From: Myxococcota bacterium
GTDB taxonomy: Bacteria > Myxococcota_A > UBA9160 > UBA4427
DNA: 64,000 nucleotides
Assembly (NCBI GenBank): GCA_965250285.1
Contig: OZ252299.1
Coordinates: 576,001 to 640,000, forward strand
Direction of reading: 5' to 3'
Shown here: one piece after another, positions 10,721 through 35,588 of the stretch
Layout of the letters: the number at the start of each line of letters is the position of its first letter
Numbering within the stretch: the first letter of the stretch is position 1
Position numbers and translations under genes: made by a program
Notes under the pieces: generated by a model
What the model was told of the DNA's origin: nothing
Databases searched by the model: none
What the model saw: the letters and a program-made list of their open reading frames with translations, nothing else

Positions 10721-12760
10721 TCAGTCTGCGTAGATGGGGCTCGACCAGGCCGCCTGGCCATCGCGCTGAACCACCCGCACGTAGTGGTACTCGCCGCGAC
10801 CGAGCCGCGGCAGCTCGCGCTCGTGGGTGACCTCGAGCTGGTCGGGCTCGACCGGGATCGTGGCCACGCGACCGCTGCGGACGAGGTCGATGCGCTCGAT
10901 CGGCGCCGTGCCCGCGACCTCGACCCGCAGACGCTGCAGGGGCGCGGCATCATCGCCAGCGGCTGGCAGCACCGTGCCCATGGGCTGCCCGTCGATCTCG
11001 ACGTGGAGCCAGATGCGGTGGCCGTTCGTCGCATAGGTGCGTCGTGCGCGCAGCGCGTCCTGCACTCCGGCGCGGGTCTTTTCTTCTGTGAGCAGCGCGG
11101 CGAGCCCGCCGCTGCCGCCGGGAGAGGCGAGGTGCGTGAGGCCGGGATGCCCGTCGTGGCTGTCGCCGCTGCCGATGAACCCGAAGCGGATCCCCGCCTG
11201 CAGCACGTCGCGCACCGTGTTGCCGTTCACCGGCGAGTAGATGCGGCCCGGCGTGTCGGCCGCTTCGCTGCTGCCGTGGACCGATACCACCTCGGTCACG
11301 GGCTCGAGCACGGGGTCGGCGCCGTAGGCCCAGTTGGTGCTGACGGGGCCGCCCGCCGAGTGATGCGCGAAGGTCATCGCGGGCAGGCCCCGCAGGCCGT
11401 CCCACAGCTGGGCGGGCGAGGTGTAGGCGGGATCCATGCTCGACAGCACCGGGCCGTCGTCGTCGAAGTAGAGCACGTGCCGGTGGCCGTGCAGCCAGCT
11501 CGTCCACTCGTAGCCGAGCACGGTCACGAACTCGCCCGGGTCGTGGTGCGCAGCGACCGTGCGCTTGATCTCGTCCCACATGTCGGGGTGCTCATCGAGG
11601 AAGCGCAGGCCCCAGTGGTCGTGGTCGGTCAGCGCCGCCACGTCGAGCCGTGCGACGTCGCGCGCGTACGCGAAGTAGTCGTCGGGCGTGCCGGTGCCAT
11701 CGGAGAGCTGGGAGTGGCCGTGCAGATCGGCCCAACGCACCCGCGGCGTCGTCGGGTGGATGATGATCGGGTTTGAGACCCCGCCGATCCCGTCCAGCTC
11801 GGCTCCGCCCGTCACGGTCACCCGCAAGACGCCCGCCGTCTCGGGCGCGACGAGAGCGACCTGCGCGCCCGCCGACTCGCCGGCGGCGATGGTCGTTCGG
11901 GCTGGGAGCCCTTCGAGATCGGGCGGCGACGCGTCGCTGGCCCGGGCAAGCGACCACGAGAGCGCCCCCGGACCGGTCAGACCCGCATTGCCGATCGCGT
12001 CGACGACGTGCGCGTGCGCTTCGAACGGCTCGCCGGGCCGCACGACGGTGGGCGCCGTCACCACGATGCGGGCGGGGGGGCCCGGTCCCACGTCGACCCG
12101 CGCGCCGATCGGCACGAGCTTTCGGAAGCCGTCGCCATCCCCGTCGACCGCGACGGAGATCTCGGCGCCGCGTTCGCGGTAGCGATCGACGAGCGCCCCC
12201 GCCGGTCCGGCGCCGTAGACGAAGTCGATGGCCTCGCCTTCTTCGAGGGCGCGACCGCGGATCGTGACTGCGATGACCGACTCGAAGGTCTGGGTGTCGA
12301 GCTCGACGCCCTCGGCGTCGGTGGAGACCTCGGTGTAGCCCGAGCGGGTCGGGGCGAACGTGTGCGGAGGCGACCAGTCCCAGAAGGGCGAGGGCTGCAG
12401 GAACACCATGCCGCCCTCGGCCACGCCGAGGGGGCCGGCGACGTATCGCAGCTCGAAGCGCGCGGGCCGTCCGGCCGTGATCGCCCCGGGGCCGTCGAGC
12501 GAGATGGCGCTCGCGAGCTCGACGCGACCGCCGCCGTCGGACGGGTCAGGCACCTGCGCGAGGCCGTCGCGAAGCATCTCGAAGGTGCCGACCTTCGCAT
12601 CGGCCGAGAGGATGTCGTCGGGCCGAAAGCGCGGCGCAGTGTCAGCGAGCCCGGAAGGCTCTGGGCGTGCTGCGTCGGTCGCTTCGCGGCCGGGCGGGTC
12701 GACCGGGTCGGAGCACCCGGCGACCGACGCGAGGCACGCGGCGATCGCCAGCCCGCGCAT
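10721..12760 (-). CDS. PHP-domain metallohydrolase lipoprotein (DUF3604/CehA-McbA-like)
   Basis: DLHGHSQLSDG, TDHDH, GYEWT, GHRHV, GSGDSHDGHPG, RRTYATNG; lipobox-like VAGC; start uncertain (12760 or 12811). Confidence 0.8.
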   Translation of the reverse strand: MRGLAIAACLASVAGCSDPVDPPGREATDAARPEPSGLADTAPRFRPDDILSADAKVGTFEMLRDGLAQVPDPSDGGGRVELASAISLDGPGAITAGRPARFELRYVAGPLGVAEGGMVFLQPSPFWDWSPPHTFAPTRSGYTEVSTDAEGVELDTQTFESVIAVTIRGRALEEGEAIDFVYGAGPAGALVDRYRERGAEISVAVDGDGDGFRKLVPIGARVDVGPGPPARIVVTAPTVVRPGEPFEAHAHVVDAIGNAGLTGPGALSWSLARASDASPPDLEGLPARTTIAAGESAGAQVALVAPETAGVLRVTVTGGAELDGIGGVSNPIIIHPTTPRVRWADLHGHSQLSDGTGTPDDYFAYARDVARLDVAALTDHDHWGLRFLDEHPDMWDEIKRTVAAHHDPGEFVTVLGYEWTSWLHGHRHVLYFDDDGPVLSSMDPAYTSPAQLWDGLRGLPAMTFAHHSAGGPVSTNWAYGADPVLEPVTEVVSVHGSSEAADTPGRIYSPVNGNTVRDVLQAGIRFGFIGSGDSHDGHPGLTHLASPGGSGGLAALLTEEKTRAGVQDALRARRTYATNGHRIWLHVEIDGQPMGTVLPAAGDDAAPLQRLRVEVAGTAPIERIDLVRSGRVATIPVEPDQLEVTHERELPRLGRGEYHYVRVVQRDGQAAWSSPIYAD

Positions 12761-13134
12761 GCTTCGCGCAGCGGCGCGGGCGACGAGGCTTTGAACGGGC
12801 GCGCGCGACATCCGCGCGAGGGGTAGCACATATCCCCCGAGGGAATCCCGCGCACGCCCTGCGCGAGGCCGCCGAGCGCCGCCCGACCCCGAATCCACTT
12901 CAGCCACGGGTGCTTTCTTCCGTTGTTTCCCAGGCGTGCAGTCGCGTTGCGGGGCCTGCTCGACTCGCCGTCGATCGACGGGACGACCACGGCAGGCGAC
13001 CCGCTGGCTGCCGGTGTCGTCGTGACACAGGGCCCACTTCGGGACCGGCGCGGCGGTGGGGATCGGGTGCGCGGACGAGCGCAGCGCCTCGCAAGCGGCG
13101 AGGGGCTCGGCTCGTGTCGAGGGGTGCGGAACAA

Positions 13135-16065
13135 GTGGACATCAAGGACGGCCTGCTCGGCAAGGTGCCCTTCGTCACGATCCTGGTCGCGATCGCGATG
13201 TCTGCGACGTTCGTGGCGTCTCAGCTCGGCGGTGGCGACGAGCGTGGGCAGTACGAAGAGCTGCTTCTGCGCACCCAGGTCTTCTACGAGCGCAACCCCG
13301 GCATCGAGCTCAACGCGCGCAGCCGAAATCTGCTCGGCGCCGACTTCGTCTCGCGGGTGCAGGCCGAGCAAGCCGGCGCGCACGACAAGCCGACCTTCTC
13401 GAAGCGCATGCGAGACCGCACCCAGGCCAAGTTCGACCGCGCCGTCGATCAGGCGCTCGAAGCCCGCGTGCTCGAAGATCCCGCCTGGAGCGAGGGCATC
13501 ACCGGCCCGGACGTCCCGGCCACGCGATACCTGACGTATGCGCTCTTTCATGCGAGCTGGCTCGCCTTCGGTGTGACGCTCGCCTTCCTGCTCGTCGCTG
13601 GCCTCGGCCTCGAGACCTCGTGGGGCGCGATCGTCCAGGCACCGCTCGTCGTGCTCGCGATCTTCGTCAGCGGTCTCGTCTTCGCGCACGTCGACGCCGC
13701 GGCGCAGATGCCGCTCACGGGCGGTGGGCCGCTCGTCGCCGCGCTGCTTGCGGCGTATCTGGTTCGCGGCTTCGGTGGCCAGATGCCGCTGCCTGGCGTG
13801 CTGCTGCTGCCGGCCTGGCTCTTCGTCGACGCGCTCTTCGTGCGCAGCATCTGGATCGACAACGTCGGCGACTGGCCGATCGCGACGCTCGGCGTCGCGA
13901 TGGCGCTGGGCGCCGGCATCGCCGGGGGCGTGAAGCTGATGGGGCTCGACGCCCGGCTCGTCGACACGGTCGACAGCCTCGCCGATGGCCGGCATCCCGC
14001 GCTCGAGGCGGCCGCTCGTTCGAAGAACCTCGGCCGTCCCCAGGACGCATTCGATGCGCTGCTGGCCGCGGCCGAAGAGGAGCCGGGTCACGTCGAGGTG
14101 ACGCTCGCGCTCTTCGAGGTCGCGATCGAGATCGGGCGCGCCGCCGACGTCGCGCCCCGGATCGTGCCGATCATTCAGAGCGAGCTGCGCGCCGGCGACG
14201 TCGAGACGGCGACCACCCATTGGCGCCAGGTCATGGCGAGCGGGGCGGCGGTCGACGCCAAGCCGACGCTGCTCGTCCGGATGGGCGAGGCGCTGCTCGA
14301 CTCGGGCGAACCCGAGCAGGCGCTCGACACCCTGCGGCAGGCGCTCGATGCGCCCGGCCAGATGGGGTCGGCGCTCGCGCAGCGCATCGTCCGCATCGCA
14401 CGCGACCTCGATCCCGTCTTGACCTCACGCGCGGCCGAGGCGGCGCTGCAGGATCCCCAGATCGAAGCCGACACCCGCGCCGCGCTCGAGGCGCTGGCCG
14501 GGGCGAGCGGGGCGGGGGCCTCGAGCTGGCAGCCCGCTTCGGGTGCGTCCGCGCCTGCCGCGGCCGAAGCCCCTGCGCCGCGGACCGCCGCGGGCGGAGA
14601 GATCGATGCCGACCTCGGCGAAGCCGTACCCGACGCTGCCCACGGTCTCGGAGGGCCTGGGCTCGACGAGATCGGTGGCGCCGACGATGGCGACATCGAC
14701 CTCAGCCATGTCGGCGATCTCGCGTCGCCGGAAGACTTCGCCGAGCTCGACTCGGGGGCCGCGGGCCTGCCGCCCATGGGCAGCGACGCCGAGGGCGAGC
14801 ACGATCCCAACGCGCTCTCGATCCACAGCATCGAGCGCGAGCTCGCAGGCGGACTCGACGACGATGCGACGCCGGCCGACGTGCTGGGGGGGGCGACCGG
14901 CAGCGCGTTCGGTGAGACGCCGGCGGGGCTGCTCGGTGGCGACGACACGGCCCCAGCCGATCTCTCGGCGGGCGATCCCGAATCGTGGAACGATCCGGGT
15001 CGGGTCGAGGATCTCTCGAGCGAGCTCGAGAGCGACGGCCCGGCGCTGATGAGCGAGGGGGACCTCGATCAGCCGAGGGTCGACAACTCGTTCCTCGAAG
15101 CGGGCGCGCTGAGCGCCGATGCCCTTTCGTCCGAGCCGGGAGCCGGTGTCGAACCTCGTTCGGGCGCACTCGACGAACTCGACGACTCGCTCTCCGGGGG
15201 GCTCGACGAGCTCGGCGGCTCGCTCTCGCAGGGACTCGACGATCTCGGCGGCTCGCTTTCAGAGGGTCTCGACGACCTCGGCGGTGCAGCACCCCTCGGC
15301 GACCTCCCGGCCAGCGCGGCGAGCGACGCGACCGATCCCCTCGCCATGCCCGATGCGCTCGAGACCGAGCCGCTCGGCGAGCCGACCTCACTTGCCGACC
15401 CCGGCCCTCCGCTCGATACGGGCGAAGAACCCCAGACGCCGCCGACCGAGCCGCTGCTCGAACGCGATCTGATGGAGGCCCAGGTCGAACAGGCCCGCGC
15501 CGCAGCGCTCCCGCCCATCGTGTCTTCGAGCGAGTCGCCGGCGCCGGCTTCTGGGCAAGCACCCGCGACGCCGGCCGCGTCGGTGCCCGAGACGCAGCGG
15601 GCGACCGTGGTCGATGGTCTCGACGCGGCTGGGCCTGGCGCGACGAGCCGGGCGCTCAAGGTGCTCGACGCCGTGCCGCTCGCCCTCGAGCCCGAGGCGA
15701 TGAAGTTCGATGTGGAGGGACGCGGCAAGACGCGGCTGCCCTTCGATCGTATCGACGCCGTGGCCGTCGCCGCGGTGTCGGGACTCTCGGCCAAGCCCGT
15801 GCTGGTGATCGACTTCGTCCTCAACTGGAGCGCGGGCGCCGACGAGCCGCTCAAGGCGATCCGCATTCGAAGTGATCGCTTCAACCCGACCGCCGTCGTC
15901 GGCGCGGGCGAGCCGCCGCTCGAGTCGATCAAGACCCTGATCCGCCGCGTGCTCGATGGTGCTCAGGCGACGCCGTTGCCCGACGTCGGCGCGGTCATGG
16001 GCGCACCCTTCTCGACGCAGGCCGATCTCGCAGCGTACGAGCGCGACGTGTTGCAGGCGGGCTGA
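13135..16065 (+). CDS. Rhomboid-like membrane protein (catalytic residues missing) with TPR-like region and long acidic disordered linker
   Basis: PFVT, TYALFHASW, G-LE-SWG rhomboid landmarks; GGGP in place of GASG; TPR-like helices; D/E/G/P-rich tract; GTG start 13135. Confidence 0.65.
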   Translation: MDIKDGLLGKVPFVTILVAIAMSATFVASQLGGGDERGQYEELLLRTQVFYERNPGIELNARSRNLLGADFVSRVQAEQAGAHDKPTFSKRMRDRTQAKFDRAVDQALEARVLEDPAWSEGITGPDVPATRYLTYALFHASWLAFGVTLAFLLVAGLGLETSWGAIVQAPLVVLAIFVSGLVFAHVDAAAQMPLTGGGPLVAALLAAYLVRGFGGQMPLPGVLLLPAWLFVDALFVRSIWIDNVGDWPIATLGVAMALGAGIAGGVKLMGLDARLVDTVDSLADGRHPALEAAARSKNLGRPQDAFDALLAAAEEEPGHVEVTLALFEVAIEIGRAADVAPRIVPIIQSELRAGDVETATTHWRQVMASGAAVDAKPTLLVRMGEALLDSGEPEQALDTLRQALDAPGQMGSALAQRIVRIARDLDPVLTSRAAEAALQDPQIEADTRAALEALAGASGAGASSWQPASGASAPAAAEAPAPRTAAGGEIDADLGEAVPDAAHGLGGPGLDEIGGADDGDIDLSHVGDLASPEDFAELDSGAAGLPPMGSDAEGEHDPNALSIHSIERELAGGLDDDATPADVLGGATGSAFGETPAGLLGGDDTAPADLSAGDPESWNDPGRVEDLSSELESDGPALMSEGDLDQPRVDNSFLEAGALSADALSSEPGAGVEPRSGALDELDDSLSGGLDELGGSLSQGLDDLGGSLSEGLDDLGGAAPLGDLPASAASDATDPLAMPDALETEPLGEPTSLADPGPPLDTGEEPQTPPTEPLLERDLMEAQVEQARAAALPPIVSSSESPAPASGQAPATPAASVPETQRATVVDGLDAAGPGATSRALKVLDAVPLALEPEAMKFDVEGRGKTRLPFDRIDAVAVAAVSGLSAKPVLVIDFVLNWSAGADEPLKAIRIRSDRFNPTAVVGAGEPPLESIKTLIRRVLDGAQATPLPDVGAVMGAPFSTQADLAAYERDVLQAG
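15169..15285 (+). repeat. In-frame 33-bp tandem repeat (LD[ED]LxxSLSxG x3.5)
   Basis: LDELDDSLSGG LDELGGSLSQG LDDLGGSLSEG LDDLGG. Confidence 0.9.
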
Positions 16066-16818: not shown

Positions 16819-16834
16819 CGGAACGTCGCTTGCA
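16819..16834 (+). promoter_or_regulatory. Putative sigma54 promoter of the RHS gene
   Basis: CGGAACG-TCGC-TTGCA: invariant GG-N10-GC with perfect -12 element, ~80 bp upstream of ATG 16912. Confidence 0.55.
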
Positions 16835-16911
16835 CTCTCGTCCGTCTGGTCCCATCGCGTGCACGCCGCGTCCGCTGGTCGCGTCGGGGTCGTGCGCATG
16901 GAGGGATCTTC

Positions 16912-19900
16912 ATGCCTCGAAGGTCTTCGTTCGGTCGAGCCGTGCTCGGCGTGTGGGTCGTGGGTGTCTGCCTGATCGCGGGCATCGGTTGCCAGGGGTC
17001 GTCGCCCGAACCCAGGCCCGGGCTCGTCGAGTCCGAGCGCAACGCCGTCGAGCGGATCGGCGACGTGCGCGTGCACCTGGCGCACGGCAACGTGTCGAGC
17101 GATCGCGTCGACCTGGTGCTCGACACCCGCGTCGCGCCGCTGGTCGTCGGGGCGGTGTTCAACTCGGCCACGGGGCACTGGGCGTGGCGTCACGACATGC
17201 GCCTGGCCGGCGGCGTGTTCTTCGACGACTCGGGGGCGGAGCTCGACGTCGGGGCGGTCGTCGACGGTGCGGCGATCCCGGGCACGCACTGGGTGCGGGT
17301 CGACGAGACCCGGATCAAGACGAAGGGCGGGTTGGTTCACCGATTCGACCCGATCACGGGTCGCCTCGTCGAGGTGCACTGGTCGGATGGGTCGTACCCC
17401 GCGCTTCGCTACGTCGCCGATCCCTCGGTGCCGGGGCGCCTCGACCGCATCGAACAATGTGTCTCGGCTGCGAGCTGCAGCGTGCAGCTGACCATCGAGT
17501 ACGACGCGGCCGGTTGCGTGCTCGCGGTGGTCGATCGCGCCGGACGCACGGCCGACTATCTGCACGAGCGACTCGGTGCGACCTGTCGCCCGTTGGTCGC
17601 GCGCGATCCCTTCGACGTCGAGCGAGACCTGCCCGGTCGCCGGTACGCGTACGGCGTGGCGGGCCGGCTGCGCGCGATCGTCAACTCAGAGGATGAGCGC
17701 ATCGAGCTCGACTGGTCGGGCGACAACATCGCCCGCGTGCGGCGCGTCGGTCACGGCGATCCCGAAGTGCGCTTCGGCTTCGTCGTCGATGTCGGCGGCC
17801 GCCGCACGGTGGCGGTCAAGACGACGGCGTCGGGCGCCGTCTGGGTGTATGAGTTCGACGCCGAGCAACGGCTCTCGAGGATGCGCTCGCCCGAAGGCGA
17901 TGTGGTCACACAGACCTGGTCGGGACGTCGTCCGACGTCGCGCACGGACGCATCCGGGCGTGTGTGGCGATACGACTGGGTCGACGACGACCTCGTGCGC
18001 GTCGAGCAGCCGTCGGGCGCCGCCGAGGTTCGGGTGTACGCGCCCGGCGCGGTCGACCGCCGTCACCCCGAGCGTCGGCCCGTGCTGCTGGTGACCGACG
18101 ACCTCGGCACCCGGCAGGTGCGGTCGTTCGACGCTTCGGGGCGCATGATCTCGAGTCGCAACGGGGCCGGGGACACGACGCATTTCGAGTGGGACGCGCT
18201 CGGTCAGCTCGCCCGCGCGACGCTGCCCGACGGCGTCGTGATCGAGTACCACGACTATGGCGAGCACGGCCACGCCGCGCGCGTCGTGCGGGGCGAGGTC
18301 GAAGAGGTTCGCCTCTTCGATGCGGTCGGGAACCTCGAGAAGGGCGCTTCGGTCCAGGGTGAGCTCGGGCCGGGTCGCCCCGGCCTCGTGCGGCGCCGCT
18401 TCGACGCCGATCGCAACGTCGCCGAGGTCGTGACGGTGGAGACGGCGCTCGATGATCTGACGATCGCCTACCGCTCGACGACGATCACTCGACGGAGCGA
18501 TGGGCGTGCGCTGCACATCGCGCGTCCCTATGGCGGAGACGAGTGGTTCGAGTACGACGCGCACGGCCGGCTGATCGAGCGTCGCGAGCGGGTCGACGGA
18601 GTCGACCGCGTGACGTCGATCGAGTTCGACATCGACGCTCGACCGAAGCGGTCGGTGTTGCCGAACGGCATGAAGACCGAGGTCGACTGGGACCGCGACG
18701 GGCGGCTCGTTCGCATCGAGCACACTCGGCCCGGGACGATCTGGCAGTGGGTCACGTTGACCTACGCGCAGGGTCGGGTGGTCGAGATCGGTGACTCGGC
18801 CTACGCCACACCCGAATCGATCGCGCACGACGTCGACGGCCGCGTGCAGCGCATCGACCACGCTTCGGGCGGGCGCTCCGAGCTCGAGTACGACGCGCGG
18901 GGTCGCGAGGTCGCCCGGCGCATCATCGACCCGACGACGGGCGGCGTGGCCTTCGAAGCACGACGCAGCTACGACGGGGCCGACCGGCTCGTGTCGACCT
19001 GGATCGACGGCGAGCTGTTGATCGAGCGCGAGCGTGTCGACGGTCGTCCGAGCGCGGTCCGATACGGCAACGGGCTCACGCGCACGTTCGCCTACCACCC
19101 CGCGACCGGGGAATTGATCGAGTCGCGCACGCAGGACGCCGCCGGCGTTTCGGTCGAGCGCACCGATCTCGTTCGCGATGCCGGCTACGAGCGGCTCGAT
19201 GTCACCGTCACCAGTCGAATCCTGCTCGCCGGGCCTCCCGGTGGCGCGCCGATCTGGCACCGCGCCCTCGAGGTGCATCGCCTTCGCTGGGGTCCGACGG
19301 CGTACGACGGCTTTCCCACGCCGGGTCCGTGGCTGCGCATGTCGAGCCAGAACGACATCCTCGAGACCCCGGTGGCAGATCGCGTGCGCTTCGATGCGCT
19401 CGGCAATCTCGACGCGTTCCAGCCCCGCGGCGGTCCGGCGACCGAGTTCACGATGAACGCGGAGCGCAATCGCCTGCTCGCAGGGGGCTTCGACGCCACG
19501 CGCACCTACGCGACCGACGAGGCGGGCTTCGTCGTGTCGCGAGATGGCGTCGCACTCGGTTGGACCGCGGGGGGGCGACTCGCCTCGATCGGTGCGTCGG
19601 TCTCGCTCGCGTGGGACGCGCGCAATCGCCTGCGATCGCGCACGATCGACGGCGTGACCACGCGTTTCGGCTACGGCGGGCGCGTCGAGGTCGATGCGGT
19701 CGGGCGACCGATCGCCGCCGAGATCGACGGGGTCGGGGTCGCGCTGGGCAGTGGCGCACGCCGGTATCGCCACCACGACGATCGCGGCAACGTGCTCTTC
19801 GTGAGCGATGAACAGGCGGCGGTCGTACGTCGCCACGTGTACGCGGGCTTCGGTGAGCGGGCCGTGTTCGACCGCGACGGGACGGAGCGCGCGCCCGGAT

Positions 19901-20490
19901 CGGGCGAGCGCGGGTTCGCCGGTGGTCTCCACGTCGCTGGGATGATGCTGCTGGGCGCGCGGCCCTACGATCCGGCCATCGGTCGCTTCCTCGCGCCCGA
20001 TCCCGTCGACCACGTTCTGAACGACTTTGCGTACACCCGCGGCAACCCGGTTCATCTCTGGGATCCGGGTGGGACCCACGCGACGCCCGTCGGTGGCGCG
20101 CCCTCGCAGACGCCGGCCGGACAGGCCACGGTGACCGTCGGGGTCGGCTTCATGGCGATGGGGGCTTCGATGGCCGGCAACGCCGTGGCCGCCGGACCGC
20201 TCGCTGGGCAGTTCACCGCCACGGGCGTGATCATCTTCGTCGGGGGCGTGGTCTTGGTGTACGTCGGCACGGCCATGCTCGACTCGCCGGATCCGCCGAC
20301 CATGGCGCCCCCCGTGCCCCCACCGGCCGAATCGACCGATGCCCTGCCCGACGGTGACCTCGGCAGCGGATCGACGTGTTCTCCGGATGCGTTCCGACCG
20401 CGCACATCCGGGACGCCGCGGGCGGTGATCTGGCTGCTGCTCCTCGCAGCGGTCGTCGGCCTCATGCGCCGCGCCGAGGTGAGCGGCTAG
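16912..20490 (+). CDS. RHS/YD-repeat protein with N-terminal signal peptide and C-terminal CTERM-like membrane tail
   Basis: Many YD/FD/WD-xxG repeats; core RPYDPAIGRFLAPDP...YTRGNPVHLWDPGG; GGAGGG RBS; tail GSGSTCS...WLLLLAAVVGLMRR. Confidence 0.9.
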   Translation: MPRRSSFGRAVLGVWVVGVCLIAGIGCQGSSPEPRPGLVESERNAVERIGDVRVHLAHGNVSSDRVDLVLDTRVAPLVVGAVFNSATGHWAWRHDMRLAGGVFFDDSGAELDVGAVVDGAAIPGTHWVRVDETRIKTKGGLVHRFDPITGRLVEVHWSDGSYPALRYVADPSVPGRLDRIEQCVSAASCSVQLTIEYDAAGCVLAVVDRAGRTADYLHERLGATCRPLVARDPFDVERDLPGRRYAYGVAGRLRAIVNSEDERIELDWSGDNIARVRRVGHGDPEVRFGFVVDVGGRRTVAVKTTASGAVWVYEFDAEQRLSRMRSPEGDVVTQTWSGRRPTSRTDASGRVWRYDWVDDDLVRVEQPSGAAEVRVYAPGAVDRRHPERRPVLLVTDDLGTRQVRSFDASGRMISSRNGAGDTTHFEWDALGQLARATLPDGVVIEYHDYGEHGHAARVVRGEVEEVRLFDAVGNLEKGASVQGELGPGRPGLVRRRFDADRNVAEVVTVETALDDLTIAYRSTTITRRSDGRALHIARPYGGDEWFEYDAHGRLIERRERVDGVDRVTSIEFDIDARPKRSVLPNGMKTEVDWDRDGRLVRIEHTRPGTIWQWVTLTYAQGRVVEIGDSAYATPESIAHDVDGRVQRIDHASGGRSELEYDARGREVARRIIDPTTGGVAFEARRSYDGADRLVSTWIDGELLIERERVDGRPSAVRYGNGLTRTFAYHPATGELIESRTQDAAGVSVERTDLVRDAGYERLDVTVTSRILLAGPPGGAPIWHRALEVHRLRWGPTAYDGFPTPGPWLRMSSQNDILETPVADRVRFDALGNLDAFQPRGGPATEFTMNAERNRLLAGGFDATRTYATDEAGFVVSRDGVALGWTAGGRLASIGASVSLAWDARNRLRSRTIDGVTTRFGYGGRVEVDAVGRPIAAEIDGVGVALGSGARRYRHHDDRGNVLFVSDEQAAVVRRHVYAGFGERAVFDRDGTERAPGSGERGFAGGLHVAGMMLLGARPYDPAIGRFLAPDPVDHVLNDFAYTRGNPVHLWDPGGTHATPVGGAPSQTPAGQATVTVGVGFMAMGASMAGNAVAAGPLAGQFTATGVIIFVGGVVLVYVGTAMLDSPDPPTMAPPVPPPAESTDALPDGDLGSGSTCSPDAFRPRTSGTPRAVIWLLLLAAVVGLMRRAEVSG

Positions 20491-20530
20491 CGCGGTCGTG
20501 CGGGCGTCACCGGCGCGTTCGGTCGGCCGC

Positions 20531-21421
20531 TCACGGGCGTGCACGCCGCCAGGCGGTGTGCACGACGTGTGCGGCCGACCAGAACAGGTAGGTGGCCGGT
20601 GAGAGGACGGCCCTCGAGACGTCGACGATCGACGCCGGCCAGGCGCTTGGCGCGCCGAGCACGGCCATCGCACCCAGGCACAGCGCCAACGTCGGTGCAT
20701 GCAGTCGCAGCAGCGCGATGAGCTCGCTGCGAAGCCGGCCGCGCGCCCGGGCCCGTGCCACGATCAGGATCAGCCAGCTCACGAGGTGATGCAGCGTGAC
20801 CGCCGCGATCACGTCGGTCGCGTCGATTCGCGGCGAGAGATGAGGCGCCGCGAGCGCGAGCAAGCTGAGTCCGGCGGCGATCGCTGCGTCGGCGAAGAGG
20901 TCGCTTCGCCGCGTCGAGAGCGCCGCGATCGGCAGCGCGTCCTCGGGGCTCGACCGCCGCAGCGCGCGATCGTTCTCGACGGTGTGCCACGCCGACAGGG
21001 CGAGCAGACCCAGGGGCAGCGCCGGCGCGAATTGGCAGAGCTCGACGTAGGCCGCATACCCGGTGGCGAGCGTCGCCAGGGTGCCGAGCTTCGCGGCCGC
21101 CGCACGCGGGGGCTGCGCCGATGCAGGCCGGCGGCCACGCACGACGCTCGCGAGCAGGTGGCCGTAGCCGAGCGCGAAGACGACGTGCGAGTGGAGCGCG
21201 GCGCGGGCTTCGTTCTCGGGCTCGAGCCAGAGGCTGGCCGCCACCCAGCTCGTGGTCGCCGCGAGGGAGGCCTGGCTGATCCGCCGCCCGGCCGAGCCGG
21301 GTCGGCCGGGCGGGGTCGAACGGCTTCGGCTCGGGCGCTCGCGCCGCCATCCGAGGAAGGACCGCACGGAGCGTCGCCCGCTGCGCACCAGACGGTTCGC
21401 CCCGTTCGAGCCGGTGCGCAT
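20531..21421 (-). CDS. Hypothetical polytopic membrane protein with spaced His motifs
   Basis: TGATG overlap with the CPBP gene; motifs LGYGH, SAWHTVEND, TLHHLVSW, FWSAAHVVH between hydrophobic helices. Confidence 0.6.
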   Translation of the reverse strand: MRTGSNGANRLVRSGRRSVRSFLGWRRERPSRSRSTPPGRPGSAGRRISQASLAATTSWVAASLWLEPENEARAALHSHVVFALGYGHLLASVVRGRRPASAQPPRAAAAKLGTLATLATGYAAYVELCQFAPALPLGLLALSAWHTVENDRALRRSSPEDALPIAALSTRRSDLFADAAIAAGLSLLALAAPHLSPRIDATDVIAAVTLHHLVSWLILIVARARARGRLRSELIALLRLHAPTLALCLGAMAVLGAPSAWPASIVDVSRAVLSPATYLFWSAAHVVHTAWRRARP

Positions 21422-22089
21422 CAGAGCGCGGCCGCGTCGAAGCGCGGGGCGACGACCGCCACATTCAGGCCGACGTGCAGCGCCGTGCAGGGCGAGACGC
21501 GCCTCGTGGCCAGCCAGACGAGGCCGAGAGCGAGGCCGGCAAGGAAGGTGCCGAGCATCCGCACCGGCGTCGCGTGGGGCAGGGCGAAGCACGCCGCGCT
21601 CACCACGACCGCCGCCCATCGACCGACGCGCGGTTCGAGCGCGGCGAGCAGCCGACCCCGGTACAGCCACTCTTCGAATGCGGGCGCGAGCGCGAGGCAT
21701 GAGACGAGCTCGAACGCACACGGCGCTGCCGCGGCGTCGAGACGGGGCGTCGCGCCGGTCGCGGCGACGAAGGCGTACCACGTGGCGGCGCCGAGGGCGG
21801 GCTGGATGGCGACCCCGACCCACATGAACGCGAGGGCCTGGCCGATCAGACGGGTGGGGCATCGATGGCTCGGTTCGACGCGTGGGCACCGATGCGCGAT
21901 CCAGCCCAGCGCGATGGCGAACGAGAGGGCGACGCCGATGCAGCCGGGCCATGCGAGCTGAACCAGCGCGAGCTGGCACCAGACGACGCAGACGAGGACG
22001 CACGTGGCGCCGAGTCGGGGAGGGGGCGTGGGCATCACGCCCGTCGACGAAGCAAGCGCCGCGCCAAGCGCGACGCGGTGCAGCGCCAA
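21421..22089 (-). CDS. CPBP (CAAX/Abi) family intramembrane glutamic endopeptidase
   Basis: APAFEEWLYRG, FALPH, LHVGLN; start may be ATG 22035. Confidence 0.85.
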   Translation of the reverse strand: MALHRVALGAALASSTGVMPTPPPRLGATCVLVCVVWCQLALVQLAWPGCIGVALSFAIALGWIAHRCPRVEPSHRCPTRLIGQALAFMWVGVAIQPALGAATWYAFVAATGATPRLDAAAAPCAFELVSCLALAPAFEEWLYRGRLLAALEPRVGRWAAVVVSAACFALPHATPVRMLGTFLAGLALGLVWLATRRVSPCTALHVGLNVAVVAPRFDAAAL

Positions 22090-22152
22090 GCGCGGCGCTG
22101 TGTCGCGCTTGGCGCGACGCTGTGTCGCGGCAAGCGCTGCGCTGTGTCGCCG
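22065..22152. repeat. Four 22-bp tandem direct repeats
   Basis: Units at 22065, 22087, 22109, 22131; consensus CAAGCGCGACGCTGTGTCGCGC; GCTGTGTCGC exact in three units. Confidence 0.85.
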
Positions 22153-29864: not shown

Positions 29865-32800
29865 ATGATCCAGTTCTTCTGTCGTTCGTTCGCCGGTGCG
29901 CACCCCCAGCGAACACGATGGGCCACCCGGGTTCTCGCGGTGTTGCTCCTGGCGTTCGGAGCGAGCTCAGGCGGTCTCCTGACCGCCCCGGGCGCGCAGG
30001 CGCTCGAAGCGCTCGATGGGCGTGTTCAGGCACACGGCTTCGTCGAGATGCAGCTGCGCACCATCAGCAAGAACTACACGGGCAACTGGGATCTCGTGCA
30101 GTGGTACAACATCTTCAACCTCGAGCTCGAGGTGGATCTGCTCCAGGACACGATCGGCCCCCTCGACCTCGTCTCGGGCTACGTGCGCGTCGAGGCGCGC
30201 TTCGACTGCATCTACAGCCGCGGCTGCGGCATGGTCAAGCCGGTCAACACTTTCGGCAATCGCGCACGCAGCCTCCCGACTCGGTTGATGGACGGCGACA
30301 CGTTCACGACCGCCGGCCAGATCACGCTCACCGACGACGGCCCGATCGCGCGCCCCGATCGAAACCCGCTCGCGTTCCAGGAGGTGCCGGGCTTCGAGGG
30401 TCTCTACGGCGAGGAGCCCGAAGATCAGATCGGCCCCGGCGCGCTGCTGCGCCCCGAGCTCATGCAGTGCACGACCTCCGACTGCAGCCCGGCCAACGCC
30501 GTATGGCGCCCGTGGAATGCCCCGACGCGATTCTGGAAGGCCGATCGCAACCAGAAGTGGGCGTCGACCAGCGGGCAACCGTGGGAGACGATCGACGACG
30601 GCACCCAGGGCTCGCCGTTTCTCGTCAACAACTACGCCTTCGAGGATTTTCGCTTCGCGACGATCCCGGTGATCGGCGGCGCACAGACCGGTCACGCCCA
30701 GCAGATCTTCGGCCCCTGGCTGCCCGAGAACTTCGTCGAGCCGAACGCCGCGATGGCCGACATCGCGAACCCCCTCGACCAGTCACGCGTGTCGCCCGCC
30801 AGTCTCTCGTTCGGCGCCGGCGGCTCGCCGTATCGCCCGATTCCGATCTACCGCGAGGACAACCCCGAGCGCAGCCAGATCTACATTCGCGATCTGCGGC
30901 CGTTCACCGACCCGAACCCCGAGCGCGACGCGAACGGCGACCCGCTCGACGACAAGTTCAACGACTACGACGACACCTTCGGCTGGCAGGTGGTCAACCC
31001 GAATGCGCTCGATCGGCGCACGTTCAACGATCGTGCGGCGGCCGCGAACGAGGCGCGAGGCATCTTCGTGCCGTCGGCGCCGCTGCGGGCCGCCCTCGCC
31101 GAGGGCAACCTCGACACCTACAACTTCAACTTCACCCAACAGCAGCGCGCCTTCAATCGCGGCGCCGCGCAGCAGGACGAAGGCGAGCTCAAAGAGGCCT
31201 ACCTCGACATCGAGATGTTCGACAGCCGACTGTGGATGCGCGTCGGCAAGCAGACCATCGTCTGGGGCAAGACCGAGCTCTTCCGCACGACCGATCAGTT
31301 CAACCCGCAGGATCTCGCGCTCGCCAATCTGCCGAGCCTCGAAGAGTCGCGCATCGCGCTCTGGGCGTGGCGCGGCGTGTGGTCGTTCTACGAAGTCGGC
31401 CCGCTCTCCGACGTGCGCGCCGAGCTGGCGTTCAACTTCGACGAGTTCGAATCGGCCGATCTCGGCGCCTGCGGCGAGCCCTTCACGATCAACATCGTCT
31501 GCCAGCTGACCTTCGGCGCCATGGCGCACGGCTTCACCGGCATCGGCGTGGTCGGTCAGGAGCAGCCGCCGAACCCGTGGGACAGCCTCAAGGGCTGGGA
31601 GATCGGCGGCCGCCTCGAGTTTCGCTGGGACCGGTTCAGCTTCGCGATCACCGACTTCTACGGCTACGACGACTTTCCGCACGTGCGCCGCCTGTCGACC
31701 TACAACCGCAACGTCGACTGGCGCACCGGTCGCCCCCGCGTCTACATGCACAGCGAGCAGGATCTGCAGCTGTCGTTCGACGGCACGGTCGGTCGCGGCT
31801 GCGCGACGCCGACCGATCCCGGCATTCCGACGACGGGCGGCGTGATCGACAACAGCGCGAGCGCGACCCCCGGCTATGTCGAATACGACGGGGCCGAGAA
31901 CGCGGGCTGCCTGACGCCCGGTTCGTCGAATCGCATGGTCGACTCGGCCGGCAAGCCCTACCAGGTGCCCTTCGGCACGCCCGACTCGCGCGACAATCCG
32001 TGGGGCAAGTACTCCACGCAGTTCTGGAACGACACGTCGCGCGCAGACGCCAACGACCCCCGCCCCGACTGCTTCGAGGGGACGGGCGGCTCGAACAACG
32101 TGTCGCCCGACTGCCTCGCGCTGGCCGACTACGATCCCCGGTACGACCCGAACAACACGCTCGCCAACAACTACGGCACGTCGCAAGGTCGACTCGATGC
32201 CCGCTTCATCAGCGACCTCAACCCGGCCTGGTTGAACTCGTACGACCCGACCCTGCGGTACGACCCGCGCAACGCACTCGAGCAGTCGCCGACCAACCTG
32301 TCGGTGTTCAACTGGGTCTGCGCTTCGACCGTGGGCTTCAGCGAGCTCGACCCCTCGGCCTGCGCCACGACGGTCTTCAGCTCGCAGCGCTACTCGCGGG
32401 GCGTGCAGAACCCGGTGTCGTATCTGCTCGCCGGCGTGATCAGCGGCTCGCAGAACATCAACGTGGCGCTCTCGGGGGCCAGCGCGAACGAGTCGCTCTC
32501 GTACTTCACCAGCATCCCGCAGCTCATGGGCATCCCCTTCATGCGGCTGCACGTCGACACCATCGCCGAGGTCGACGACGAGGCGACACCCAACCTGAAC
32601 GAGGCGCTCTTCACCTACGATCGCCGCGCCCAGTGGGCGGTCGAGACGGGTGTGGCCGGCGCGGCCGCCGACCTCGACCAGATGCTGATCCGCGCGCGTG
32701 AGGGCGAGAGCTACAACTGCCTGTCGCGCGGCTTCACCCAGGCTTCGGCGCTCACCGGTCAGGCGGTGCTCTGCGGCGGCTATGCCTGGCGCGGCACGGG

Positions 32801-35588
32801 CGTCGACACGCGCTCGCAGGTCGTCGGCCACATCTCGCGCGGGTTCGCGCCCGAGCAGGAGGCGCTGCTCGGCTGCGGGCCCTACTTCGGGACGAGCTGT
32901 GACGCGAACGGCGTCGACCTGCTCTGGGCCGAGGGCAGCGCGCTGCTGCAGTCGGCGATCGGTAACGACTCGATTGGCATCGCCTTCAGCGATCTGGGCA
33001 TCCAGGATCTCGTGCCCGAGATCTACGGCGACCGGCTGATGGACAACGGCAGCATCCCGCTCGAGTACCGCACCGACGGCCGCGTGATCGGTGTCGATGG
33101 TCAGCTGATCCGCATCAACGAGACGACGGGGCTGCCCGAGCTCGGCACCGCCGAGGGCGCGGCGACGGGCTTCGTCGGTCGAAACGGCCAGGCGATCGGT
33201 CATGACGGCAACGACTGCAATCTGACGTACGAGCCGTTCAATGTCGATCCGACCACGCAGGAGCAGCGCCTGCGGACGGCCGCCGCCAACCGCTTCAACT
33301 CGCGCTGCTGGGATCGCCGCGAGTACTTCGTGGTGAACGGCATCCAGCCGGGCACGTCGGCCTTCGAGATCCAGGGGCTCGGCGGGCCGAAGTGCACGAC
33401 CGCCGACATCGGCGGGCCGCAGGGCGCCTCGGGCATCCTGCCCGGCTGCCGCAACAAGTGGGCAACGATCCGCTACAACCGCGTGCTGCAGCCGGGCGAG
33501 GGCGAGTACCACCCGAACAACCCGCTCGCCGAGTACGTCGGCAACAACTATCTCGGTACGGTGGGCGACCCGACCGGGCAGCGCACCGACTACCAGCAGA
33601 TCGACCTCGCGGCCCAGTTTGGCTGGTGCCCGGCAAGCGACCCCGACTGCAACGTAAACGCCCCCGACGGCCGGCTGGTGACGCTGACGGGTGGCCAGGT
33701 CGATCCCACGGGTCGCGCGACCACGGGTTCGGGTCTCAACTGGGGCGTGTACTCGCCCGGCCAGGTGCCCGGCTGCGACGTCGCGGGCTCCGAGGACGAT
33801 CCCCGCTGCTACCTCGCCGGCTGGGTGCAGACCACCGACGGCGACCCCGACCGACTGGGCGTGCTCTTCCCCGACGAGGGCGCGATCGACTTTCCGCAGG
33901 TCTTCCAGGCGACCGGCGGCTTCGACTTCGGCACCGGGCCCGAGGATCTCGGCACCTGGGTCACGAACATCGTGCAGCGCGACTACGTGAACATTCGCGC
34001 CGGCACGCCCTTCGGCGCCGATCCGTCGGGCTGCACCGAGATGCAGGCCTGGGTCTGGATGCAGCGCGTCGCCGACGAGCACGGCGGCGGCTACATCAAC
34101 CACGCCGAATGTACGTCGGTCAAGACGGGCATCGGGGCGGGCCATCCCTTCACCGGTGAGAGCTGGTCGAGCGAGGTCGCGGGCCTCTCCTTCAACTTCA
34201 TGATGCTGCTGGTCGCCTTCTCGCCCGAGTTCGCCGACGGCATCGCGAGCGTGCGCGGCTTCGTCGACCCCGCGACGTACGACGCGAAGCTCTACTCGGA
34301 CCAGCCGCTGACGTCGGACGACGCGAACTTCGATCGGCGCGACAGCGTGGCCGAGTCGGGCATCGACGATCAGCTGTTGCCGTGCCCGGTGACGGAGACG
34401 AACTGCAGCCGCCTGCAGCGCGACCCCGATCTGCCGAACGTGCTCGACGTCTTTCCCGATCTGAAGTGGTACGAGCAGCAGTCGCCCTGGGCCTTCCGCG
34501 AGAACGCGGCCCGGCGCCTTCGCCTCGGCACGTCGGCGGGGCAGAACATCGACGCGATCGGCGCGGGCGCCGCCGAGATCGCGCGCGGCTCGGACGGCAA
34601 GATCTTCAGCCAGGGCGAGAACGGCGGGCGACACCGCTGGCGCGGCCTGATCCACACCATGCTCTGGGACTACGCCTTCACGGGCAGCGAAAACCAGCTC
34701 ATGGCGTTGATCCCGAAGTGCACCGACGAGCGGGCCACCCAGGCGCGCATGATCCAGGGCAGCGTCAAGTTCGTGAACCCGTCGCGCATCGACTGCCGCG
34801 AGGGCTCGGCAGGTGAGACGCTCGGCAGCGAGCGCTGCACCTTCGTCACGCCGCAGCACTGCTCGCTGGTGCAGGCGCTGTACAGCGTGGCCGGTCAGAA
34901 GCGCAACATCATGCGCGCGGGCGGCAACGGCACCTTCGGTCGCCGGACGATGCAGTGGCAGTCGGGCAGCGAGGTCTACCTGAGCTATGAGAAGCGCAAC
35001 GTGCTCGGCTTCTCGATGGACTTCGCGGAGGACTTCACGAAATCGAATTGGTCGACCGAGTTCACGTTCATCAAGGGCATCCCGACGGCCGACGCGAACT
35101 CGTACGAGCTGAACACCCGCACCGATACCTACAACCTGACGGTCTCGGTGGATCGACCGACCTTCGTCAACTTCCTGAACTCGAACCGCACGATCTTCAT
35201 CAACTCGCAGTGGTTCTTCCAGTACCGCAGCAACTACAACAGCGGCATGGGCCCGAACGGGCCGTGGAACACGCTGGCGACGCTGTCGGCCTTCACGGGC
35301 TACTTCCAGGATCGCCTCAACCCGGCCATCACCGGCGTGTACGACTTCCGGTCGCGCTCGGGCGCGGCGCTGCCGTCGATCAACTACCGCTTCAGCGAGG
35401 CGTTCTCGATCACGGTCGGCGCGTCGATCTTCTTCGGTCGACAGCAGCTGCAGCCGATGCAGGTGAACCCGATCGGGCCTGCGATCGAGCGCGGCGGCGT
35501 GACCCCGTATCAGGACGGCTTCTTCGGCGGTCTGTCGCTGATCAAGGATCGCGACGAGGTCTACATGACGCTGCGGTACACGTTCTGA
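29865..35588 (+). CDS. Giant DUF1302-like outer-membrane beta-barrel protein with large Cys-rich insertions (1907 aa)
   Basis: GGAGG RBS; signal peptide ending AQA; ELKEAYLD...RVGKQTIVWG...DQFNPQD; amphipathic strands; C-terminal beta-signal YMTLRYTF. Confidence 0.8.
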   Translation: MIQFFCRSFAGAHPQRTRWATRVLAVLLLAFGASSGGLLTAPGAQALEALDGRVQAHGFVEMQLRTISKNYTGNWDLVQWYNIFNLELEVDLLQDTIGPLDLVSGYVRVEARFDCIYSRGCGMVKPVNTFGNRARSLPTRLMDGDTFTTAGQITLTDDGPIARPDRNPLAFQEVPGFEGLYGEEPEDQIGPGALLRPELMQCTTSDCSPANAVWRPWNAPTRFWKADRNQKWASTSGQPWETIDDGTQGSPFLVNNYAFEDFRFATIPVIGGAQTGHAQQIFGPWLPENFVEPNAAMADIANPLDQSRVSPASLSFGAGGSPYRPIPIYREDNPERSQIYIRDLRPFTDPNPERDANGDPLDDKFNDYDDTFGWQVVNPNALDRRTFNDRAAAANEARGIFVPSAPLRAALAEGNLDTYNFNFTQQQRAFNRGAAQQDEGELKEAYLDIEMFDSRLWMRVGKQTIVWGKTELFRTTDQFNPQDLALANLPSLEESRIALWAWRGVWSFYEVGPLSDVRAELAFNFDEFESADLGACGEPFTINIVCQLTFGAMAHGFTGIGVVGQEQPPNPWDSLKGWEIGGRLEFRWDRFSFAITDFYGYDDFPHVRRLSTYNRNVDWRTGRPRVYMHSEQDLQLSFDGTVGRGCATPTDPGIPTTGGVIDNSASATPGYVEYDGAENAGCLTPGSSNRMVDSAGKPYQVPFGTPDSRDNPWGKYSTQFWNDTSRADANDPRPDCFEGTGGSNNVSPDCLALADYDPRYDPNNTLANNYGTSQGRLDARFISDLNPAWLNSYDPTLRYDPRNALEQSPTNLSVFNWVCASTVGFSELDPSACATTVFSSQRYSRGVQNPVSYLLAGVISGSQNINVALSGASANESLSYFTSIPQLMGIPFMRLHVDTIAEVDDEATPNLNEALFTYDRRAQWAVETGVAGAAADLDQMLIRAREGESYNCLSRGFTQASALTGQAVLCGGYAWRGTGVDTRSQVVGHISRGFAPEQEALLGCGPYFGTSCDANGVDLLWAEGSALLQSAIGNDSIGIAFSDLGIQDLVPEIYGDRLMDNGSIPLEYRTDGRVIGVDGQLIRINETTGLPELGTAEGAATGFVGRNGQAIGHDGNDCNLTYEPFNVDPTTQEQRLRTAAANRFNSRCWDRREYFVVNGIQPGTSAFEIQGLGGPKCTTADIGGPQGASGILPGCRNKWATIRYNRVLQPGEGEYHPNNPLAEYVGNNYLGTVGDPTGQRTDYQQIDLAAQFGWCPASDPDCNVNAPDGRLVTLTGGQVDPTGRATTGSGLNWGVYSPGQVPGCDVAGSEDDPRCYLAGWVQTTDGDPDRLGVLFPDEGAIDFPQVFQATGGFDFGTGPEDLGTWVTNIVQRDYVNIRAGTPFGADPSGCTEMQAWVWMQRVADEHGGGYINHAECTSVKTGIGAGHPFTGESWSSEVAGLSFNFMMLLVAFSPEFADGIASVRGFVDPATYDAKLYSDQPLTSDDANFDRRDSVAESGIDDQLLPCPVTETNCSRLQRDPDLPNVLDVFPDLKWYEQQSPWAFRENAARRLRLGTSAGQNIDAIGAGAAEIARGSDGKIFSQGENGGRHRWRGLIHTMLWDYAFTGSENQLMALIPKCTDERATQARMIQGSVKFVNPSRIDCREGSAGETLGSERCTFVTPQHCSLVQALYSVAGQKRNIMRAGGNGTFGRRTMQWQSGSEVYLSYEKRNVLGFSMDFAEDFTKSNWSTEFTFIKGIPTADANSYELNTRTDTYNLTVSVDRPTFVNFLNSNRTIFINSQWFFQYRSNYNSGMGPNGPWNTLATLSAFTGYFQDRLNPAITGVYDFRSRSGAALPSINYRFSEAFSITVGASIFFGRQQLQPMQVNPIGPAIERGGVTPYQDGFFGGLSLIKDRDEVYMTLRYTF

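Follow-up and report, generated by a model that had tools for sequence, protein, structure and literature searches.

We analyzed a window of 64,000 nucleotides from a Myxococcota bacterium (GenBank assembly GCA_965250285.1, contig OZ252299.1, positions 576,001 to 640,000 of the forward strand), which lies in a 6.25-Mb single-contig genome with a completeness of 95.4%; positions without a contig name are those of the window. The window encodes an RHS protein that ends in a C[SA]P sorting tail, consisting of a Cys motif, a transmembrane helix, and a basic cluster, and that converges on genes for a CPBP protease and a His-rich membrane protein. Comparison with related genomes added a fourth gene, encoding a short paralog of Lgt. 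In our interpretation, the paralog probably lipidates the tail Cys, and the CPBP protease probably trims the tail of a small cargo that would be released by self-cleavage of the RHS protein. A toxin role of this cargo is less sure than the processing of its tail. Sequence and comparison establish the anatomy of the RHS protein, its conserved Cys, and the intact motifs of the protease and the autoprotease, as well as the fold that the paralog shares with Lgt and the joint distribution of the tail, the protease, and the paralog.

The gene for the RHS/YD-shell lipoprotein (16912-20490, plus strand, 1192 residues), supported by its open reading frame (ORF), family matches, and orthologs, starts at ATG 16912 with a lipoprotein signal. 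Its stop is separated by 40 bp (20491-20530) from that of the convergent gene for the His-rich polytopic membrane protein (20531-21421, minus strand, 296 residues), which was assigned from its ORF, conserved residues, and alignments. The ATG of the latter overlaps by one base, at 21421, the stop of the gene for a CPBP/Rce1-like glutamic intramembrane protease of a distinct subfamily (21421-22038, minus strand), whose start is probably at 22035-22038, with TTG 22089 as a possible start. An earlier note on this DNA had described an RHS gene and a coupled CPBP/His unit 40 bp apart, and the ORF coordinates bear out this layout; the genes listed there are real, but the bounds given were limits of open frames and not starts. 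The same note took the locus to be a self-contained set of three genes, which does not hold, since the Lgt paralog, the gene tied most tightly to the tail, lies elsewhere in the genome.

The C[SA]P sorting tail

The RHS protein ends in PPTMAPPVPPP ... GSGSTCSP, a spacer, the hydrophobic helix VIWLLLLAAVVGLM, and RR, and the translation confirms the Pro-rich linker, GSGSTCS, spacer, helix, and RR that had been noticed before. The tail proper (20377-20490, plus strand) begins with Cys1156 (20377-20379) and contains, after the spacer, the transmembrane helix (20425-20466) and the RR pair (20467-20472). In 29 aligned orthologous tails, the Cys and the Pro were invariant, and the middle residue was S or A. 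No other protein of this genome bears a C[SA]P tail; a genome-wide scan for ends with a Cys motif, a transmembrane helix, and basic residues returned two ORFs, those of the RHS protein and of a 3123-residue protein.

This tail has the tripartite form of a sorting signal as defined by Haft, namely a motif, a transmembrane helix, and a basic cluster near the C-terminus. The form that had been likened to MYXO-CTERM and JDVT-CTERM tails is therefore present, but membership of either family is contradicted by scores under the cut-offs. Specifically, the tail scored 9.8 and 11.4 bits with MYXO-CTERM (TIGR03901, cut-off 20) and 12.4 bits with JDVT-CTERM (NF033191, cut-off 27). Among the 29 tails, the best E-value with JDVT-CTERM was 0.046, three were listed for the JDVT-CTERM model and two for the MYXO-CTERM model, and the alignment contained no conserved Asp-Pro after the Cys, a feature of JDVT-CTERM. 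Neither MYXO-CTERM nor the NCBIfam 'lipo-invert' tail (NF058595) had a match over its cut-off in the whole genome.

Several sorting systems coexist in this genome, with many PEP- or VP-type tails and four other CPBP proteases. The tails other than C[SA]P are mostly of the PEP or VP type, and two belong to a second, shorter Cys tail (CGL-type; CG[LI]xGxE followed by a helix and a basic cluster), which ends two unrelated proteins (G000:C1:4139577-4144613, minus strand, and G000:C1:5017294-5018970, plus strand). The CGL-type tail was also found on 13 RHS orthologs (loci L066, L073, L077, L078, L083, L126, L131, L135, L137, L138, L143, L146, and L147), in genomes that lack the dedicated enzymes described below. 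Five CGL-type tails were checked against NCBIfam and gave no match over the cut-off. This tail probably constitutes a further, so far undescribed sorting signal that has an enzyme of its own.

Candidate enzymes and their distribution

The window protease matched PF02517 with 62.8 bits (cut-off 22.4) and contains EEWLYR, FALPH, and HVGLN, so that the intact EExxxR, FxxxH, and HxxxN motifs reported for it earlier were found again; these motifs were kept in 22 of 22 aligned CPBP orthologs. It scored under the NCBIfam cut-offs of the myxosortase models MrtJ, MrtS, MrtC, MrtP, and Mrt_core (MrtJ, 33 of 75 bits; MrtS, 32 of 130; Mrt_core, 19 of 100). For other members of the subfamily, the best E-values with these models were 2.9e-10 or weaker. 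A score gap sets the subfamily apart (members at least 114 bits, next at most 74) in the class set used here, which comprised 169 genomes, each at least 85% complete.

A profile search with the His protein returned a protein annotated as PF01790, which led to a short Lgt paralog that adjoins the cassette in 11 loci from the initial set; a scan with one such paralog gave at least 15 loci. The paralog has about 200 residues and three invariant Cys, and 14 of 18 members matched PF01790 at E 0.1 or better. Its score gap in the class set lay between at least 90 and at most 61 bits, and its score with the Lgt equivalog model (PRK00052) was 25 bits against a cut-off of 334. The paralog adjoins the RHS gene in many relatives and is kept even where it is unlinked, as in the window's genome, in which it is located at C1:2896140-2896733, 2.3 Mb from the RHS gene; this genome also has an ordinary housekeeping Lgt at C1:3439887. 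The structural model of the paralog (pLDDT 93.8) matched only E. coli Lgt in Foldseek (5azb; E 8.9e-5, TM-score 0.59). The equivalents of Arg143 (21 R and 2 K in 23 sequences), Arg239 (23/23), and Arg246 (22/23) were kept, as was that of Glu243. Outside this order, no paralog was detected among 401 genomes of the phylum, apart from one 64-bit match.

RHS orthologs, mostly in single copy, were found in 39 of 61 relatives and in 81 of the 169 class genomes; they belong to one Myxococcota order, across which the identity of the shell is 35-40%. The CPBP subfamily and the Lgt paralog were each present in 41 of the 169 genomes and the His protein in 35; 39 genomes shared the protease and the paralog, and 31 had all three enzymes. 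An RHS gene was found in 40 of the 41 protease genomes, and the exception (G165) is 88% complete. The end of the RHS gene could be read in 77 of the 81 genomes (G038 and G108 were cut by contig ends; G009 and G168 were left out). Classified by pattern, 37 genomes had a C[SAT]P tail, together with the CPBP protease in 35, the Lgt paralog in 36, and the His protein in 29. None of the three enzymes was found in the 12 genomes with a CGL-type tail. The protease, paralog, and His protein occurred in 3, 1, and 1 of the six genomes with other Cys tails and in 1, 2, and 3 of the 22 genomes classified as tail-less. Two of these 22 do carry a C[SA]P tail, which is frame-shifted in G055 and elongated in G125; G031 has the His gene alone of the three enzymes, without a tail. 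The two odd tails are located at L061:4400-5100 and L148:1050-1750, and in G125 a repeat-like sequence separates the Cys from the helix; these changes are either assembly errors or real.

The tail and the enzymes changed together in six of six independent pairs on a 72-row FastTree phylogeny of the RHS protein, and in seven of seven on a 63-row IQ-TREE phylogeny (p = 0.016 for the paralog and 0.016-0.031 for the protease), which held one row per genome and left out the other Cys tails; G055 and G125 were counted as tail-bearing in both trees. For the His protein, the IQ-TREE phylogeny gave 5.8 of seven pairs. The genes also regularly lie near each other: of 42 tail-bearing genomes, a count that takes in three from outside the class set, 33 had one or more enzyme genes at a distance of at most 5 kb from the RHS gene, with the CPBP gene in 27 and all three in 12. 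Homologs without the C[SA]P tail exist, and the tail and the protease co-occur, as the counts of 35 in 37 genomes and seven in seven pairs indicate. The dedicated pairing of a Cys tail with a CPBP protease, as first proposed, is thus supported by the conserved tail, the only one of its kind in the genome, and by this co-occurrence, while the protease itself falls below the curated Mrt cut-offs.

Shell, predicted self-cleavage site, and cargo of the RHS protein

In profile searches, the RHS protein matched PF05593, TIGR01643, and TIGR03696 above cut-off, and its best PDB sequence matches were Rhs cores. These matches define a YD-repeat shell with an RHS-associated core (16993-20073, plus strand), which is preceded by a predicted lipoprotein signal peptide (16912-16992, plus strand) with the lipobox residue Cys27 (codon 16990-16992). 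At the end of the shell is an aspartyl autoprotease motif with D1030 and D1051 (DPVD...DPGG; 19999-20073, plus strand), as defined in PMC10684867; the two Asp are spaced by 21 residues here, against 22 canonically. According to PMC10684867, other Rhs proteins use this two-Asp motif to sever the C-terminal domain, and cleavage just after DPVD...DPGG is predicted for the window protein. Because the tail lies past an intact DPxG site, the tail is likely part of a cargo of about 100 residues and not of the shell, for which the lipobox predicts a lipid anchor of its own at the N-terminus. The earlier description of the protein was accurate as to the tail but missed Cys27 and the position of the tail downstream of the DPxG site, and its suggestion that the RHS protein is displayed via the tail is probably wrong.

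The lipobox pattern was present in 62 of 78 full-length RHS orthologs. As a pattern match, obtained without a SignalP run, it was present in 31 of 38 rows with a C[SA]P tail, and also in 13 of 18 tail-less and 10 of 13 CGL-type orthologs. The Lgt paralog tracks the tail and not the lipobox, and lipobox orthologs without the tail are also without the paralog, which weakens the alternative that the paralog serves N-terminal lipidation.

The view that this RHS protein is not delivered by a type VI secretion system (T6SS) was upheld. No match to TssC (PF05943) or VgrG-type (PF04717) proteins was found in the single-contig genome at its 95.4% completeness, whereas GspD was present (557 bits, above cut-off). 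The RHS protein also differs from a T6SS effector in having a lipoprotein signal in place of a T6SS-type N-terminus.

The cargo (20074-20379, plus strand, about 102 residues) consists of a Gly/Ala-rich hydrophobic hairpin (about 20125-20280) and the Pro-rich linker that leads to the tail Cys. Its length up to this Cys ranged from 61 to 157 residues across orthologs, with a median of 102, and no Pfam family matched above cut-off. Cargos are hypervariable, with a median identity of 24% against 23% for shuffled sequences and 43% for the last 250 residues of the shell. They were hydrophobic in 38 of 43 tail-bearing, 21 of 22 tail-less, and 5 of 13 CGL-type rows.

A co-oriented gene 3' of the RHS gene was found in 59 orthologs; 37 of these genes encode small, variable, immunity-like membrane proteins, and 13 form one rhomboid cluster. 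In the window, no co-oriented, immunity-like, or rhomboid gene follows the RHS gene (20491-20530), and a search of this genome for an ortholog of the cassette rhomboid gave none; a genome of the same genus (G001) has a rhomboid at the equivalent position. The cassette rhomboids are a subfamily, often with an extra N-terminal membrane part, located right after the RHS gene in 13 orthologs (12 with C[SA]P and one with CGL-type tails), for instance at L051:7513-9384 (minus strand), L052:10098-12059 (plus strand), L119:4192-5043 (minus strand), and ten further loci. These rhomboids may destroy the hydrophobic cargo.

Given such a variable and hydrophobic cargo, the CPBP and His proteins might be self-immunity genes that destroy a membrane-active cargo in the producer, with the tail as an uncleaved membrane anchor. 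CPBP proteins have been suggested to act in bacteriocin self-immunity, as stated in the Haft preprint (10.1101/2023.06.07.544157), and the window is without a co-oriented immunity-like gene. The tail-less rows argue against this explanation: their equally hydrophobic cargos occur in genomes without the protease, and 16 of these rows carry small variable membrane genes directly downstream. The protease thus follows the tail and not the hydrophobic cargo, which weakens the immunity explanation, and the invariant Cys and the Lgt paralog would have no place in it. We regard it as very improbable.

A further alternative, close to the version in the earlier note, is that the cargo remains in place after its tail has been lipidated and cut, giving a doubly anchored surface or periplasmic structure, such as an adhesin or spacer, in which the hairpin forms ordinary membrane helices. 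The mostly single-copy gene with its conserved shell and the lipid anchors predicted at both ends would suit such a structure, and a two-helix hairpin would keep the Cys periplasmic whether or not it is inserted. It is hard to reconcile with the two catalytic Asp motifs, which were kept in 81 and 76 of 85 rows under a strict pattern, with a cargo as variable as shuffled sequence, and with the immunity-like small genes that follow many orthologs. This alternative therefore appears quite improbable, and processing of the tail on a self-cleaved cargo remains the preferred interpretation.

His-rich membrane protein

The His protein belongs to a family of 242 clusters at 50% identity, in which five His, one Glu, and one Asn were 99-100% conserved in 230 near-full sequences, in line with the His-motif membrane protein proposed earlier. 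The codons of the essentially invariant His in the window are at 21160, 20986, 20788, 20701, and 20569. The structural model (pLDDT 92.1) has nine helices, and the Arg-rich loops, read by the positive-inside rule, would place the His cluster in the cytoplasmic half of the membrane. The His protein is accessory and optional, as it is absent from 8 of 37 tail-bearing genomes. In-frame fusions of the His protein behind the CPBP protease were found in the database proteins P0158, P0172, P0193, and P0238, and also in G038. Co-folding of the window CPBP protease with the His protein gave a score of 0.00 (mark 0.32), which is evidence in neither direction.

No match to the His protein was found in Pfam, NCBIfam, or PDB sequences, nor in Foldseek at E 0.001 or better. 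The ESM Atlas returned just unnamed clusters under 0.9 and no named match, and the family was not found outside this order among the 401 phylum genomes. The best VIA-align hit was a designed helical protein (Z 6.2, rmsd 5.3, 137 aligned residues), which corresponds to the background of helical bundles. Brp/Blh beta-carotene dioxygenase (PF15461), considered on account of motif spacing, was not supported, with an hhalign P of 0.062, a probability of 0.9%, and one motif aligned; 6 of 40 block shuffles scored as high.

Additionally, the His protein of P0237 is fused to a C-terminal domain that resembles an alpha/beta hydrolase (GxSxG motif), which possibly hints at lipid remodelling. The single ORFs that join the His protein and the Lgt paralog (P0088, P0098, and P0099) were not counted as fusions, since two have a garbled, frameshift-like His C-terminus and the third is partial.

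Proposed processing of the tail

In the pathway that we propose, the RHS protein would be exported by Sec and lipidated at its N-terminus via the ordinary lipoprotein pathway, and the shell would cut off the hydrophobic cargo at the DPxG motif (DPGG). The tail helix would keep Cys1156 on the periplasmic side of the inner membrane, where the Lgt paralog may transfer diacylglyceryl to it in an inverted topology. The CPBP protease would then cut distal to Cys1156, as MrtX does on MYXO-CTERM, and the product would be a small cargo with a lipid anchor at its C-terminus. A type II secretion system (T2SS) could carry the shell and cargo to the surface, where the cargo might act on membranes like a polymorphic toxin. 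As an optional accessory enzyme, the His protein would work together with the protease; our tentative guess is that it carries out a metal-dependent reaction on the newly formed C-terminus or on the lipid there.

Taken together, these steps would amount to an inverted lipoprotein pathway, in which the paralog lipidates a C-terminal Cys, the CPBP protease acts as signal peptidase, and a membrane metalloenzyme with a fold not yet described finishes the C-terminus. A ribosomally made lipopeptide of about 100 residues would be caged in a lipoprotein RHS shell and delivered without a T6SS, and its lipid would aid entry into the target membrane. This full version is possible but doubtful, and only the processing part is held to be probable.

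Several observations weigh against this interpretation. In the paralog, Leu replaces His103 (21/23), Cys replaces Asn146 (23/23), and Tyr235 has no equivalent, and mutating these three residues inactivates E. coli Lgt, as reported in PMC8689077. MrtX processes TraA in E. coli without a dedicated transferase, according to PMC11980579, and MYXO-CTERM can thus do without a private enzyme of this kind. Apart from one 64-bit match, the 401 phylum genomes showed no paralog outside the order, and it is therefore not the M. xanthus enzyme itself. With respect to the protease, G017, G085, and G125 are without a CPBP match, and G164 has a CPBP protein beside the His gene that scores 72 bits, under the threshold. 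The seed alignments were taken in part from the genomes that were counted, and most relatives are fragmented metagenome-assembled genomes. The window's genome is itself atypical: its paralog is among the most diverged, and its tail is without the Gln or Asn that occurs inside the tail helix in 25 of 29 tails. With no downstream gene, no helix Gln or Asn, and a diverged paralog, the window copy of the system may be drifting.

The main remaining rival follows from these substitutions. It holds that the CPBP protease processes the tail, that lipidation of the Cys falls to the housekeeping Lgt or to no enzyme at all, and that the paralog is a catalytically dead adaptor for the inverted substrate or serves the N-terminal lipobox. 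The lost equivalents of His103, Asn146, and Tyr235 are joined by a variable His-Pro-Thr motif (H in 12/23), and the processing of TraA in E. coli (PMC11980579) fits the same explanation. On the other hand, the paralog keeps the lipid-headgroup arginines and the Lgt fold, and differences at the positions of His103, Asn146, and Tyr235 occur in this genome's housekeeping Lgt as well, which softens but does not remove the doubt about catalysis by the paralog. We consider a dead paralog unlikely, and lipidation of the tail Cys by the paralog is retained as the preferred explanation.

Comparison with known systems

CPBP proteases cut Cys-bearing tails, and lipidation is thought to come first, as described in PMC11980579 and the Haft preprint. 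The text of PMC11980579 states that the transferase for the MYXO-CTERM Cys is unidentified and names Lgt as the leading candidate despite the inverted topology. The C[SA]P system works like JDVT-CTERM/MrtJ and MYXO-CTERM/MrtX, but the curated models assign it to neither. With JDVT-CTERM/MrtJ, as presented in the Haft preprint, it shares a single target per genome that carries a Cys motif, a transmembrane helix, and a basic end and lies beside a CPBP protease. In contrast to that system, it has a C[SA]P motif, a longer spacer, an RHS cargo as target, and an additional Lgt paralog and His protein; the conserved residue inside the helix is Gln or Asn here and Asp-Pro in JDVT-CTERM, and, among the genomes searched, the C[SA]P system occurs in a single Myxococcota order. 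With MYXO-CTERM/MrtX, as described in PMC11980579, it has in common an invariant Cys, a CPBP protease, a T2SS, a model of lipidation before cleavage, and the same phylum label. MYXO-CTERM is presented there as a housekeeping signal that dozens of proteins carry and that is served by a protease encoded at an unlinked locus, whereas the system described here has one target, linked enzymes, and a candidate transferase.

The paralog resembles Lgt (PF01790, 5azb) in its fold and in the equivalents of Arg143, Arg239, Glu243, and Arg246. It differs from Lgt in its short length, its status as a second copy, the replacement of His103, Asn146, and Tyr235, its three invariant Cys, and a distribution that follows a C-terminal tail.

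The RHS protein is similar to Rhs toxins such as Tse5 (PMC10684867) and to bacterial teneurin-like proteins (PMC13018210) in that a YD shell with a two-Asp DPxG autoprotease is followed by a hypervariable C-terminal domain of small size and by a variable downstream gene; the C-terminal domain of Tse5 is reported to be membrane-active. Teneurin-like proteins of Myxococcota are described in PMC13018210 as predicted Sec/SPII lipoproteins with polymorphic C-terminal toxins and immunity genes. Unlike the Tse5-type toxins and teneurin-like proteins as portrayed in these papers, the system described here has a sorting tail behind the cargo and dedicated tail enzymes, and no T6SS gene was found. In a literature search that left supplements and most subscription papers outside, no description was found of an RHS cargo with a Cys sorting tail, a CPBP protease, and an Lgt paralog, and 'RHS' is absent from the main text of both myxosortase papers (PMC11980579; 10.1101/2023.06.07.544157).

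On the tree, the paralog changes repeatedly in step with the Cys tail and the CPBP protease, even where it is unlinked, which is comparative evidence for an Lgt fold serving such tails. The set of three or four genes offers a testable candidate for the lipid-attaching enzyme proposed to act on such tails, although the restriction of the paralog to a single uncultured order means that it bears on the M. xanthus question only by analogy. In addition, a sorting signal tied to a self-cleaved RHS cargo suggests a route for RHS cargo that was not found in print, and the system yields a membrane protein family with five conserved His, for which the structural model is confident but fold searches gave no match.

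Neighboring genes and other RHS proteins

A large ORF upstream of the RHS gene (12667-16065, plus strand) encodes a protein that combines TPR repeats and a long, low-complexity acidic region with a weak rhomboid domain; no orthology to the cassette rhomboid was found for it. Downstream, a 1907-residue ORF (29865-35588, plus strand) has a signal-peptide-like start and a C-terminal Phe, and gives the impression of an outer-membrane barrel with a very large insertion. Elsewhere in the genome, a tandem pair of RHS proteins of about 680 residues each, with related C-terminal domains, is encoded at G000:C1:846203-850053 (plus strand), and two more large RHS proteins are located at about C1:781381-788610 and at C1:1409976.

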